From Escherichia coli (GTDB lineage Bacteria > Pseudomonadota > Gammaproteobacteria > Enterobacterales > Enterobacteriaceae): 64,000 nt of DNA. Positions 8,501 to 17,500 of this stretch are shown in pieces. Location of the stretch: the NCBI RefSeq assembly GCF_013315695.1, contig NZ_CP054353.1; one strand, 5' to 3'. Made by a program: the position numbers. Each line of letters opens with the position of its first letter. Within the stretch, counting starts at the first letter, position 1.

Positions 8501-11500
8501 TGATAGCGCGTTGCGTATCAGGCTTTCGGAACCTCATATTGACAAGGTGGATAAGGTTACTGGAAGCAGGTTGCAAACCCCGGCGTTTTCGCAGGCTGAA
8601 TGCCACAGTTGAGACTGCCAGAGCCTTCATCAACACCACAATAGAACGACCCAGCCTTATCAGTAGATAAATACGGGAAGCTTATCGAGGACGGCCATCC
8701 CAATGTGCTAAAGCCGGAGTGTAATGTTTGTAATTCGGCACTGCTCGGCACGTTATTCATACTGCCACACTGCTGCGCGACATCCCATTTAGAGGAATCC
8801 ATAACATGCGCCAGTGCCCAGGTTTCATTATTTACATCAGGCGTTGCTGCTGCGGTAGCGCCTGACGGCAACTCCGATTTTAATAGCGGGCGATGCAGCG
8901 TCTTGCCACTTACCGTGGCGGTATCCGCCATATGACCCCAGAAATACGCCGTGGCGACATTCGGGCTGGTCGGCACGGTGAAAATCGTGTCCAGCGTCGC
9001 CGTTATGGTGGCGTTATCCGTCAGCGTCACCGTCAACGGCGTTTTATATCCTGGCGTATTATCCTGACGAACGGTAAAGCTTGCCGTACCGTCCGCTCCC
9101 GTGACTCCGTCGATGGTATTTCCACTGTCAGCCAACGTGACTGCCGCACCGGATGAAGGTTGCACAGTCAAATCGTCCATCGCATCCACATCGCCATACA
9201 GCGTCGCCCCGCTGTTACGCGGCACGGCCTCACCGCGTTTTAGGATAAAAGCGATATTCGGCACCGGCTTCCCGGCGCTGTCTTTTACGGTAACGACAAT
9301 GGGCGCGGCGTCGCCTTTTTTCACCGTCGCCGCCTGTGTGGCGTCATCCAGCGCCGTTGATGTCAGCGTGACGCTGGAAACGCTCGCACGCGGGTTAACC
9401 AGGCAGGCCTGATGAGCGGGATTATATTGGCCTCTCGAACCATTTACCAGGCTGACGGCCTGCGGATTACTGCCCCCTTCCCAGTTATCCACCGCCCACC
9501 ATGCATACTGCGTAGGCCAGCCAATTTGCGCGGTAATCGTGTTTCCTGGATAACGTGTATAGAGCGCTTCTAAATCATCGCTCAATGGTCGACGTGCCGC
9601 TTCACAAGGGCTGAGATTGCTGTCAGCCCTCTGCGTTGCGTTAAACACTGGCCAGGCTTCATTGCTATTCGTTATCTGACTTACCCCGGATGTCGACGGC
9701 AGCTCTTTCCACAGTTTAGGGCGCTCAAAGACAGCACCGTTTTCCGCCGTGACGGTATCCGGCATATGGCCCCAGTAAGTTGCTAATGCGGCATCCGGGC
9801 TGGTGAGGACGGTAAAAATCAGATCCAGAGTAGATACCTTTGCCGTGTCACGGGCCAGGATGGCGTTAAAGGGGATTGCCAGGCCGACAGTATCAGGCTG
9901 TTCAACATTGAATGTCGCCGTACCATCGCTACCGGTGAAACCAAGCCATTGTGTACCATTTGAAACCAGCGGGAATGTCGCCGACACGGGCGTCAGTTCC
10001 GTTAACTTTATTTCATTCGCTGGAGTCCCCACGATTGTTCCTGAACGGCTCAACGCTGAATCACGTTTGAGCGTCACCGCTTCGCCCGCCAACGGGTTGC
10101 CATCACGATCTTTTACCGTTACCACAATCGGTATTGAGTTACCTTTTTTCGCTGACGCGCTGGGACGGCCGCCATTGCTGGTGGTTCTGGCGTCATCCTG
10201 TGCGGATGACGTCAACGTTACGCTGACGCCGGCCGGATGCGGCTGTGCCAGGCAAAGCATCAACGCACTGGTTGTCCCCTTCTGCGTAATGGTTCCGTCT
10301 TTCAGGCTGATGAGTTGATAAGTCCACGACGTTCCACTCAGCATGACCATATCATAGGCCCACCAGTTACCTGCATATACGGGTAACCCCAGGTCGGTCA
10401 TTAGCGTGCCGTTCGGGTGATCGCGATACAAATCCAACAGCTCATTACTGCGCGGTTGATTTTCGAGCGGGCAATCTGTCGATGTTAAATTTTGCGCGTT
10501 GCTCATATATGACCAAACTTCGCCGTTAGAGCTAATCGATGAGCCTGAGCTGGTTTCGGCTTTCAGCAGCGGTCGTTTGAAGGTGACGCCCGTCGAGCTG
10601 GTAAAGGTGTCCGGCATGTGTCCCCAAAATTTCGCACTCGGCGAATCCGGGCTGGTGATCACCGTATAGATAACATCCAGCGTGGCGGCTTTCGTCGTAT
10701 CACGCGCCAGCGTCACGGTTAACGGCGTCGCCAGCCCGGTCGTCGCATTCTGACTCACCTCAAAGGTCGCTTTGCCATCGCTGCCCGTCGTGCCGATCAG
10801 TTTTGCTCCACTTGCTGCCAACACACTATTTGTATTCGCGGGTACCAATGCCGTTACGGTAAGGTCGTCCGCACTCGTGTTAACGGTTGCTTTCGAGCGA
10901 TCCAGCGTCGTTTCACGCGTGAGGGTAAACTCAGCATATGGCATCGGGTTCCCGGCGCTATCACGCACGGTCACCGTCAACGGAATCGTCTCGCCTTTCT
11001 TCGCTACGGCGCTAGGTCGTCCACCATTACTGGCCGATTTTGCTGCGTCCTGCGCCGTTGAAGTAAGCTCTATTGTGGCTGCTTCCGTATGTGGTTCTAC
11101 CAGACACATCACTACTGCCGTATAGCTGGACGATGCCTGCATCAACTGACCATTAACAGGTGAAAATGCCTGATTAGACCAGTTGCCAGAAACCATCATC
11201 ATGTCGTAGGCCCACCAATACCCGGCAGACGTCGGCAAGCCGAGCACCGATCCTAACTGGCCGTTAGGGTAATCCGCATACAACCCCTGCATGTCATTCA
11301 CCAGCGGTTGATACGCCACATCACACCCGGCCTTGCTGGCATCCGCTTTCTCAGTCGCTGTCAGGCGCGACCAGGCTTCATTATTGACTGTTATGGCCGT
11401 ACCGCCAGAGAGTTCAGCTTTGAGGAAAGGCCGCTTGAAGGTGACGCCTTCGCTGCTGGTAAAGGTTTCCGCCATATGGCCCCAGTTGGCCGCCAGCGGT

Positions 11501-14500: not shown

Positions 14501-17500
14501 TTAAAGCCGGAATAGCTGTCGACGCTCCCGTTCCCCAGATTCACCGATGAATGCGTTTCTTGCTCCACCGCGCTTAGGTAGCTCTGTTGTGCGGTAGGCC
14601 AGCCATACTCAGTGCCAATCGCGTTACCGGGATGGGCTGAAAACAGGCTTTCCAGTGAGCTCTGACGCGGTATATGACCCACCCCGCATTCCGCCTGCAT
14701 ACTGGTGTTTTGATCGTACAACGCCCAGTCTTCGTTGTTTTCCCGCACTGTTCCCAGTTCATGCTCGGTTTCATCCGCCAGCAACGGGCGTTTATACAGA
14801 CTGCCGGACTCAATAATGCCGCGCATATGGCCCCACATCCGCGCTTTGTCGCTGTCCGGGCTGGTGATTACGGTAAAAATCACATCTTTGGCATCCGTGG
14901 CGTTAAAATCGCTGCGCATTTTCGCCGTGATATGGGTTTTCACCCCCGCGCCGCCGGGCTGGCTCAGGGTGAGCGAAGCCTGGCCGTTGGCGTCGGTCAT
15001 GCCTTCATAGGTATGTGCGTCGACCTGGCGAAAATTACTGCCGCCAGTAATCTGCACCGGATGGGCTTCCCAGGCGGAGTCGGTTTGATTTTTGCGGTTA
15101 ACGCCGTCATCCAGATGCAGCGAGAAGTAGTAATACGCCAGCGGTTGATCGTTGTTTTTATTGTCGGTGATCGTCAGACGCATCGTGGCATCCTCACCCA
15201 CCTTCGCTTTCATCGCCTGTGCCGTATCATCATAGTTTTCTGGCGTAAGGACGATTTTCGGTTCGACGTCAGGCGCGGGTTTGTCCACGCAGCTTACCAG
15301 AAACGTGGTGCTATCCGGCTTTTGCGCTTCAGCACGGTTAGAGACATCCGCTGCATGGTGCTGCCCGGTAGTGCCCGCCAGCGATGTCCAGTAATAATCA
15401 TCCTGCATCGGCCAGCCAAGGACAGTCTGTACCGTGGAGGGAATCACCGTCGCCAGTGCGCCGAAATGGCGCATGCCCGGCAGCACGGTGCAATGGCTGT
15501 CTGCCCCGCTCCAGGTGAAAGTGGACCAGGTTTCGTTGTGATCGACGACCGTGGCATTTTCATTGCTGACTTCCGCCGCCAGTTTTGGCCTGCTGAACGT
15601 GTAGCCGTGTGCCTCAACCGTTTCCGCCATATGGCCCCACATCGTGGCCTGCTCCACGTCCGGGCTGGTAAGTACGGTAAAAATCACCGCCGTTTCGCTG
15701 GTTTGCGCAATGCCGGAAATACTCGCCACCAGCGGCGTTTTGACGCCGGGGCCGTTAGGTTGGGTCACCGTGATGGTTGCCGTACCGTTGGCATCCGATG
15801 TGCCACGATACTCGGTTGCCGTCGTCGTTAACTCAGTGCTATCCAGCACCACCGGTGCGGTGTTATTCACCGCGTCCTGGCGGTTTTTCGCATCCTGTCG
15901 TTTGATAATAAACGGGATATTGCCCGCGACGTTGCCCTGACAGTCTTTGGTGGTGACGGTCAGCGTGAGGGTGTCGCCAACGGTGGTTTTTGCCGCACCG
16001 AGCGTTTCGTTATAACCGCTGGCGCTCACCGAGATTAAATCGCCCTGTGCAGGCGCGATGTTCAGCGTCACTTTCTGGTCAGCCAGCGCCACCGTCCCCT
16101 CATAGGGATAACCAGTCGAGGTCAGCAGATAAAGCAGTGGAATGGTTTGCTGCGCATCAATCTGTGGCCAGGCCACCAGCGAACGCCCGGCCAGACCTTG
16201 CGCGCAAAAGCTGCGGTTGGCGATGGGCTGCGGGTTGAGCGGCGTATCCGGCGTGGCGGCATCCGCCCACACCAGACTGACGGTCGGCGGCGTCTGGTTT
16301 TCCCAGCGCAGCGCAGGTGGTGTGGAGAACTGGTCGCCTTCACTGTCCTGAGGATTAGCGACTATCAGGTTAGCAGCGTCATCGTCAACGCTAAATTCAT
16401 TCGGTTTAGCAGAAAACGCCACATCATGAGATGCAGCAGGATCAAGCTGAACGCTTCCCTGATAAACGGGTACGCTAGCGCTATCGGCAATAGGAACTGT
16501 ACCGTTAAACTCGCCTGTAGAACCAGGATATGTCTGCCATTCCACTCCTGCCCGTGCAAAGTCAGACAGCATAAAGGCTGCCAACATGCCCAGAAGCACA
16601 ATGATTTTTCCTGGTTTCAGACATACCGACATGTAGAAAACTCCAGCATGATAAACAAAACGTCAACCCGTTTTGCTTAACGCGTCGCTAAGCAAAACAG
16701 GCGGAAAACAGCATTCCCATACGGGAATGCTGTTGTGCGCATTAGTGGTGTTTGTAAATGATAGACAGCGTATAGCCCTGAACGCCGTCGCCGTTTGCCG
16801 GGATTGCAAGGCCGGTCTTACCATTACGGTCACTACCGTTAAGGCTGGTTCTTGCTTGTTCGTTAGTTTGCGGAATAACAATGTCATTGTTATCGAAGCT
16901 GGCGTTGGCAATACCGCCCGCCGCCGCAAGTTGTTTACTGTTACCGTTAAAGACCCACGCAAAGTCGTAGTTAGCGGTAACGTCCACATCCGTACCCGCA
17001 TCGTACTTACCATTCTGGTTTTCATCCGAGTACAGTTTGGCCACATACGTTTTGTTAAGCGCAATGGCTGTATTACCACCGATAAGGTTGGTACTGGTGT
17101 CTTTCTCGAAGATGGCAACTTTCAGGTTCTGGTTAACAACCGGACCAGGATCGACATTATCCGTATCGCTGCCGCCACCGCTGGCCGTTGAAATATCCAG
17201 CAGAGTCAGCGACGTTCCCTGGAAGGGATTACCGGTCTGAGTGATAGGCTGGATTTCAACACCGATATAGCGCCCACGTTCGTCATCAGTGAGTTTATAA
17301 CTCGTCTTACCCGCCGCTGCGGTCAGCTCCGTTTTACCGCCACCCGCATTATCGCTGTAACTGTACCATTTGATAGTGGCTGTCGTTTTCGCATCAATAC
17401 CGTCTGGACCATCGTCGATATCCCCTTCGGTATCGCCGATATCCCACCCCAACGTGATGGTATCTCCTGAGTAAAGGCGTTTATCCGTCTCGCTACCTGA

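Follow-up and report, generated by a model that had tools for sequence, protein, structure and literature searches.

A RatA-like adhesin gene with nine tandem BIg21 and InvE_AD modules in Escherichia coli: identity of the protein and stability of its array

What kind of protein is encoded by an 8-kb reading frame built of nine similar modules, and does the number of these modules change readily between strains? This question is raised by a 64,000-nucleotide stretch of Escherichia coli DNA (NCBI RefSeq assembly GCF_013315695.1, contig NZ_CP054353.1; hereafter the window, counted from its first letter), in which the original prediction, made from the sequence alone, had described nine in-frame tandem modules of about 0.8 kb within one open reading frame (ORF) of 2691 amino acids and had taken them for a substrate of recombinational expansion or contraction that is easily collapsed in assemblies. 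The nine modules, each with an immunoglobulin (Ig)-like segment, are borne out by the ORF listing, by direct counting of the motif and by Pfam. The ORF, which occupies 8557..16632 on the minus strand with an ATG start, 2691 codons and a stop codon, is by its sequence the catalogued E. coli RatA-like protein of about 280 kDa, one of the DUF823/DUF824 (now InvE_AD/BIg21) repeat adhesins. The locus as a whole is very likely explained by a RatA-like adhesin whose nine-module array is old and essentially fixed in length, and which is probably exported with the aid of the neighbouring protein SinH.

The identity of the protein is given by its full-length match to the NCBIfam equivalog NF011844 'RatA-like protein', together with the alternation of BIg21 and InvE_AD domains described below, and no observation contradicts it. 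In the search with whole-protein hidden Markov models (HMMs), NF011844 scored 5545.8 bits against a cut-off of 3870 and was covered end to end, with residues 3-2691 placed on positions 1-2683 of the 2683 in the profile. The whole-protein scores for the Salmonella models fell under their cut-offs, both for RatA (NF011843, 2063.3 against 3700) and for RatB (NF011842, 2246.1 against 4079), and alignment to these two profiles was limited to about the first 1450 residues. The window DNA is 100% identical to that of E. coli MSB1_4I (NZ_LR898874.1), where RefSeq annotates the same coding sequence (WP_021562948.1) under the product name 'adhesion domain-containing protein'. The feature is already known and ordinary, being an annotated RatA-like DUF823/DUF824 adhesin; the original prediction had been made without recognition of this family.

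Three overlapping Pfam scans placed nine BIg21 domains (PF05688, formerly DUF824) and nine InvE_AD domains (PF05689, 'Adhesion domain', formerly DUF823) in strict alternation over aa 219-2689. These nine pairs occupy 8566-15978 of the window; modules do lie in the interval 8929-15640 to which they had been assigned, and the array extends more widely than that. With the BIg21 match given before the InvE_AD match, and all on the minus strand, the modules are module 1 at 15286..15978 (aa 219-321, E 3.8e-26; aa 324-449, E 1.1e-28), module 2 at 14479..15186 (aa 483-589, E 1e-24; aa 592-718, E 1.8e-31), module 3 at 13657..14400 (aa 745-856, E 3.2e-21; aa 860-992, E 5e-35), module 4 at 12793..13563 (aa 1024-1139, E 3.6e-25; aa 1142-1280, E 3e-37), module 5 at 11941..12696 (aa 1313-1424, E 6.7e-19; aa 1427-1564, E 3.9e-36), module 6 at 11101..11835 (aa 1600-1706, E 4.9e-20; aa 1709-1844, E 3.2e-27), module 7 at 10252..10995 (aa 1880-1992, E 8.1e-24; aa 1995-2127, E 1.2e-30), module 8 at 9415..10143 (aa 2164-2276, E 2.5e-19; aa 2279-2406, E 2.3e-32) and module 9 at 8566..9315 (aa 2440-2553, E 1.7e-22; aa 2557-2689, E 4.7e-22), the protein ending two residues beyond the last. 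The segment that had been called Big_1-like was rightly described as to fold, but the per-module HMM check assigns it to BIg21 (E 1e-19 to 1e-26), with only marginal and partial matches to Big_1 (best i-E 0.003). Each of the nine InvE_AD domains contains one pair of cysteines, 67-73 residues apart, and these pairs make up almost all the cysteines of RatA, which suggests one disulfide per InvE_AD domain.

The DNA motif that first drew attention to the array, CATATGNCCCCA, is found exactly on the plus strand at 8929, 9763, 11473, 12319, 13174, 14020, 14824 and 15628 (eight matches observed against 0.07 expected, a number reached in 0 of 100 shuffles). At the ninth site, 10615, the sequence is CATGTGTCCCCA, which has one mismatch to the pattern and still encodes WGHM, so that all nine sites encode the peptide while eight carry the motif as it had been written. 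WGHM stands at residues 332, 600, 868, 1150, 1435, 1717, 2003, 2287 and 2565, and the predicted spacings of 834, 852, 858, 846, 855, 846, 804 and 804 nt are exact and all multiples of three (278, 284, 286, 282, 285, 282, 268 and 268 codons). The accompanying block, predicted as FTV(I/V)TSPD, is likewise present nine times, 14 residues ahead of each WGHM, under the looser consensus (F/Y)T(V/T)xTSP(D/N), with one variant reading FTVPTSPN. FTVxTSPD marks the end of BIg21 and the start of InvE_AD, with WGHM eight residues on. The best-conserved peptide, FTVxTSPD-x6-WGHM, spans this junction of the two domains, and it is the coding sequence for it that recurs as the DNA motif.

The off-diagonal periodicity that had been anticipated is clear between modules in protein, where every WGHM-to-WGHM segment can be aligned with every other over the full length (E values from 1e-15 to 1e-91, 26-50% identity), and faint in DNA. 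In the window's allele, pairs of modules are 25-51% identical in amino acids and 39-57% identical at the nucleotide level, and the longest exact DNA word repeated anywhere in the ORF is 20 nt. Tandem Repeats Finder, run on 8000-17000 with a minimum score of 30, reported no array because the repeats are too diverged; a DNA repeat search found a 73-nt patch in nine in-phase copies of 62-78% identity, together with shorter periodic families. Assembly collapse is implausible at such identities and with no longer exact repeat, contrary to what had been predicted, and since the repeats are too diverged to collapse or recombine freely, the call of nine modules can be trusted.

The relationship of these modules to known adhesins was seen at the level of profiles and predicted structure. 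A profile of the nine InvE_AD domains matched InvE of Yersinia pseudotuberculosis (PDB 5n40_A) at E 2.6e-29; a phmmer search with a single module against PDB sequences gave no significant match. The AlphaFold2 (AF2) model of module 5, built from 18 aligned modules of two alleles, had a predicted local distance difference test score (pLDDT) of 88.7 and a predicted template modelling score (pTM) of 0.83, and in Foldseek it matched 5N40 with E 1.2e-18 and a template modelling (TM) score of 0.73 over both domains, whole-module fold searches being dominated by the Ig domain. InvE_AD itself may have a C-type-lectin-like fold, as reportedly described with the InvE structure. Because of these profile and Foldseek matches each RatA module is equated with the tip of an inverse autotransporter, and on homology and modelling it corresponds to the distal Ig-like domain plus the adhesion 'tip' of InvE, nine of them in series. 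RatA has the passenger-type build of inverse autotransporters, in which Ig-like domains end in an adhesion domain. Pfam scans of the whole protein gave no match to the inverse autotransporter beta-barrel PF11924, and the barrel is found in the neighbour SinH.

Ahead of the array, aa 1-28 (16549..16632, minus strand) are probably a Sec signal peptide, as read by eye from the translation, with a basic n-region, a hydrophobic core and an A-x-A site. The non-repeat region that follows, aa 29-218 (15979..16548, minus strand), is common to Salmonella RatA and RatB, and it matches the N-termini of NF011843 at E 8e-64 and of NF011842 at E 5e-61. A Pfam scan found no domain in aa 29-218, and AF2 modelling of this part of the protein gave a structure too poor (pLDDT 45) for a fold search.

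To follow the number of modules between strains, 5426 complete E. coli genomes were searched and 45 full-length ratA copies, evenly sampled, were compared in length. The gene is carried by 1737 of the 5426 genomes, on the chromosome in all carriers, and a full-length match was obtained in 1689 of these 1737, while in about 48 neither main allele type was matched over its full length. The E. coli alleles fall into four groups, with gene lengths of 8076, 8082, 8052 and 8043 bp and identities as low as about 66% in amino acids (about 74% in DNA); the window's own group occurs, at no less than 95% identity, in about 174 of the 5426 genomes. Direct counting gave nine motifs in each of the alleles at 100%, 90% and 74% DNA identity, which represent three of the four groups. 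All 45 sampled copies had one of the nine-module lengths (8043-8082 bp), one of them at 8075 bp, so that comparison of the repeat count across strains and across the four allele groups speaks against the predicted variability as it does against easy collapse. The 8075-bp copy, against 8076 bp (H3, NZ_CP115342.1, 1410762-1418836), may carry a 1-nt frameshift. These findings bear mainly on annotation, in that the array belongs to an adhesin already catalogued for extraintestinal pathogenic E. coli, the gene for which is found in about one in three complete genomes.

Length variants do exist, and they were found in protein databases. A search with the full-length query, of which the best 120 matches were listed, gave 76 cluster representatives complete from start to stop; a search with the N-terminal 220 aa returned truncated gene calls only and was of no use for length statistics. 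Among the matches listed, 48 of the 76 complete representatives have nine WGxM motifs, the large clusters (949, 1510, 467, 2071, 2091 and 4065 member sequences) are all nine-module, and about 14 representatives, each a single-member cluster, are short of exactly one module. Apart from the missing module these proteins match a nine-module allele at 97-100% identity (most of them at 99.6-100%), and their junctions lie in register on conserved patches such as MWGHM, TVITSPD, WGHMPDT, GVTFKRP and GNAM, other variants being out-of-register in-frame deletions of 24-560 residues. The four one-module junctions examined in DNA have microhomologies of 11-16 nt. Two of the deleted forms come from the window's allele, namely P0117, which lacks 804 nt (window 14036-14839) at the 16-nt microhomology GATGTGGGGCCATATG and has 2 mismatches elsewhere, and P0118, which lacks 858 nt (window 10660-11517) at the 15-nt microhomology ATCACCAGCCCGGAT and has 0 mismatches elsewhere. 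The 16-nt MWGHM junction of modules 1 and 2 recurs in three allele backgrounds (P0117, P0140 and P0142, the third at protein level), and P0140 was found in several samples. The three deletion junctions that were tested occur in 0 of the 5426 complete E. coli genomes.

An assembly artefact was considered as the source of the 8-module alleles and rejected, the microhomology of 11-16 nt being below any de Bruijn k-1. Because this microhomology is shorter than assembler k-mers, the deletion junctions must exist in reads, and the module deletions are probably real. Efficient RecA recombination in E. coli needs roughly 23-27 bp of homology; the microhomologies are too short for it, and a slippage-type, short-homology deletion is therefore indicated. 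The motif that was noticed first (WGHM/TSPD) is also the place where the rare module-loss alleles originate, and the TSPD/WGHM junction may be a hot spot at which short-homology deletions recur and which, along with old block duplications, would account for the natural length variants.

Natural in-frame alleles with 7, 8 and 11 modules are known in this way. The 11-module relative, of 3264 aa (L007:3001-12795, Logan contig ERR10767356_414), stands in the same sinH-sinI-ratA-xseA context, in a host whose xseA is 88.6% identical in nucleotides to that of the window. Its two extra modules, which share about 52% identity with modules 5 and 6, are an old duplicate of these; within E. coli, modules 4+5 and modules 6+7 are mutual closest relatives at about 50%. 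Judged from these identities, expansion is seen at deep time only. That the length variation (7, 8, 9 and 11 modules) is itself functional, with selection tuning the reach of the protein beyond lipopolysaccharide (LPS) or capsule or shedding antigenic modules, is doubtful, the alternative being a sporadic, mildly deleterious loss.

The sinH-sinI-ratA ('ila', CS54-like) island, which is inserted between xseA and a small zinc-ribbon gene upstream of der, has the ratA-like gene as its last member. Directly upstream of ratA lies sinI (16742..17734, minus strand), annotated by RefSeq as a SinI family autotransporter-associated protein (NF040711, 372 bits against a cut-off of 165), and the first gene of the cluster is sinH (17790..19964, minus strand), an intimin-like inverse autotransporter with a beta-barrel, likewise annotated by RefSeq (NF033423, 1483.9 bits against a cut-off of 999); PF11924 IAT_beta was found on SinH orthologues. 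In MSB1_4I the island is read as xseA, then the adhesin, SinI and SinH, then the zinc-ribbon gene and der, and its position by xseA is also seen in the RefSeq annotation of two other alleles. The order sinH-sinI-ratA, with all three genes on one strand and little space between them, is conserved both in E. coli and in one more distant relative. A 10-kb ratA-sivI-sivH island homologous to Salmonella CS54, and without shdA and ratB, has been described in E. coli (PMC3739510), and the passage of PMC12928451 that cites Shea et al. 2022 refers to sinH-sinI-ratA in uropathogenic and avian pathogenic E. coli as the 'ila' cluster and reports ila deletions as attenuating in a mouse model of urinary tract infection.

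Several further observations were made on the island. GC content falls along 8557-19964, from 55.5% in ratA to 51.6% in sinI and 47.8% in sinH, and the three genes may have different compositional histories. SinI and SinH are alike at their C-termini, the last ~100 residues of SinI being matched to positions 622-729 of the SinH model NF033423 (E 2.4e-11; reciprocal E 6e-24), which agrees with the resemblance of SinI to the Ig-like passenger of SinH noted in the literature. Plus-strand ORFs lie wholly within ratA at 14674-15831, 9803-10318 and 11734-12228, the longest of 385 aa, and are most likely by-products of the codon composition of ratA (GC 55.5% against 52.5% in the window). A degraded locus is present in E. 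coli WL297 (NZ_CP128613.1, L004:10000-12926), where sinI is gone, a 486-bp 3' remnant of ratA is left, and the sinH frame, of 816 aa against 724, runs into a module 3-like InvE_AD fragment and then a stop; the end points of this deletion are out of module register. Remnants of ~810 bp from the 3' end of ratA are found in the genomes H89 and H90, for example in E. coli O145 RM9154-C1 (NZ_CP031353.1).

Taken together, RatA would be exported by Sec, and its passage or docking at the outer membrane would be helped by the co-encoded barrel protein SinH. Homology to the InvE tip and the ila literature point to a surface-exposed adhesin, probably an extended and multivalent one, with beads on a string, that would aid colonisation of the gut or urinary tract; nine InvE-like adhesion tips in series make multivalent binding a testable idea. 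The array would have grown by ancient duplications of one or two modules that have since diverged, its number now being essentially fixed at nine in E. coli and E. albertii, with rare alleles presumed to have lost one or two modules by deletion at microhomologies. A role for SinH has precedent in the literature, where Heinz et al. 2016 proposed Rat-like proteins as substrates of a co-encoded inverse autotransporter under a two-partner model like that of ZirT/ZirS (PMC4943183), and Goh et al. proposed a two-partner model for SinH/IatB (PMC6714894).

The reading that the original prediction preferred, in which the array is a recombinationally unstable locus that often changes its module number between strains and is easily mis-assembled, finds some support in the in-frame alleles of 7, 8 and 11 modules, in one-module deletions that arose independently at least 11 times and lie in register on conserved patches, in the recurrence of the module 1/2 MWGHM junction in three allele backgrounds with P0140 present in several samples, and in the direct descent of P0117 and P0118 from the window's own allele. 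It is nevertheless quite improbable, as module number in the complete genomes is of the nine-module length in 45 of 45 sampled copies, none of the tested junctions occurs in the 5426 genomes, and almost all the variants are single-member clusters, against hundreds to thousands of sequences in the clusters with nine modules. The molecular substrate argues in the same direction, with 39-57% nucleotide identity between modules, exact matches of at most 20 nt, a blank result from Tandem Repeats Finder, and microhomologies under both the RecA length and assembler k-mers. Expansion and contraction are thus real as rare events that have left alleles of 7, 8 and 11 modules, and not as the frequent change that had been supposed. 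Still less probable is that the ORF is a functionless, decaying relic. Remnants alone survive in some genomes (486 bp in WL297, ~810 bp in H89 and H90) and about 48 of 1737 carriers are without a full-length match, yet an uninterrupted 8-kb frame has survived in four allele groups despite an amino-acid identity of only about 66%, the invariant motif residues and cysteine pairs persist in all nine modules, and the other 1689 carriers have the gene at full length.

RatA could be independent of SinH, using type II secretion or another route or acting in the periplasm, and the title of PMC9245377 reports that InvL of Acinetobacter, a barrel-less invasin-like adhesin, is a type II secretion substrate. 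In RatA no Pfam match was found over aa 1-1150 to the TPS (haemagglutination activity) domain of TpsA-type substrates or to another recognisable secretion domain, and in the literature dependence on SinH is a hypothesis only (PMC4943183). Against such independence stand the conserved order sinH-sinI-ratA in E. coli and a more distant relative, and the precedent of ZirT/ZirS/ZirU, in which an inverse autotransporter acts with co-encoded Ig-like substrates (PMC4943183, PMC6714894), and on balance a SinH-independent route is somewhat unlikely. A docking domain shared by RatA aa 29-218 and SinI is possible, to judge from hhalign, which paired the RatA N-terminus with the first half of SinI (probability 77.7%, E 1.9e-5), and from a match of the RatA N-terminal region to the NCBIfam SinI model below its cut-off (E 1.5e-4). 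Three observations weigh against a SinH-aided adhesin of this kind. The similarity of the RatA and SinI N-termini was weak in pairwise BLASTP (E 0.029) and is lost in profile searches without the signal peptides (3.1 bits, E about 1); around the gene ends and along sinI and sinH no promoter consensus or intrinsic terminator that would delimit an operon was found, such sites being no more frequent than in shuffles; and Kingsley et al. reportedly observed in 2003 that a Salmonella ratA mutant had no colonisation phenotype, where ratB, shdA and sivH mutants had one. With these points taken into account, SinH-aided export of a nine-module adhesin remains the preferred reading.

Comparison with known systems places RatA among inverse autotransporter-related adhesins and apart from the variable repeat proteins. 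InvE includes a beta-barrel and ends in one adhesion domain, whereas RatA is barrel-less and carries nine such tips in series. ZirT/ZirS/ZirU of Salmonella has the same gene arrangement, with a barrel protein followed by barrel-less Ig-domain proteins, and offers a model for SinH with SinI and Rat-like proteins; RatA differs in being about ten times larger and in having InvE_AD domains, and the SinH route is here a proposal. In the Gram-positive repeat adhesins (alpha C/Rib, Esp and Bap) the DNA repeats are near-identical and their number is frequently variable. RatA resembles these in its tandem Ig-like modules in a surface protein and in having repeat-number alleles, but its modules share only 39-57% DNA identity and their number is almost fixed; it has neither the near-identical DNA repeats nor the common differences in repeat number of hypervariable contingency-type repeat proteins. 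Closer are RatA and RatB of the Salmonella enterica CS54 island, which have the same N-terminal region, alternating DUF824/DUF823 domains and an island with sinH (sivH) and sinI (sivI), and whose profiles are 1860 and 2435 aa long, which would correspond to about six and eight modules, as inferred from length and not counted. The closest is the E. coli and E. albertii RatA-like protein (NF011844, PRK15316), which has the same nine-module build at the same sinH-sinI and xseA locus, and from which the protein of the window shows no difference of substance.

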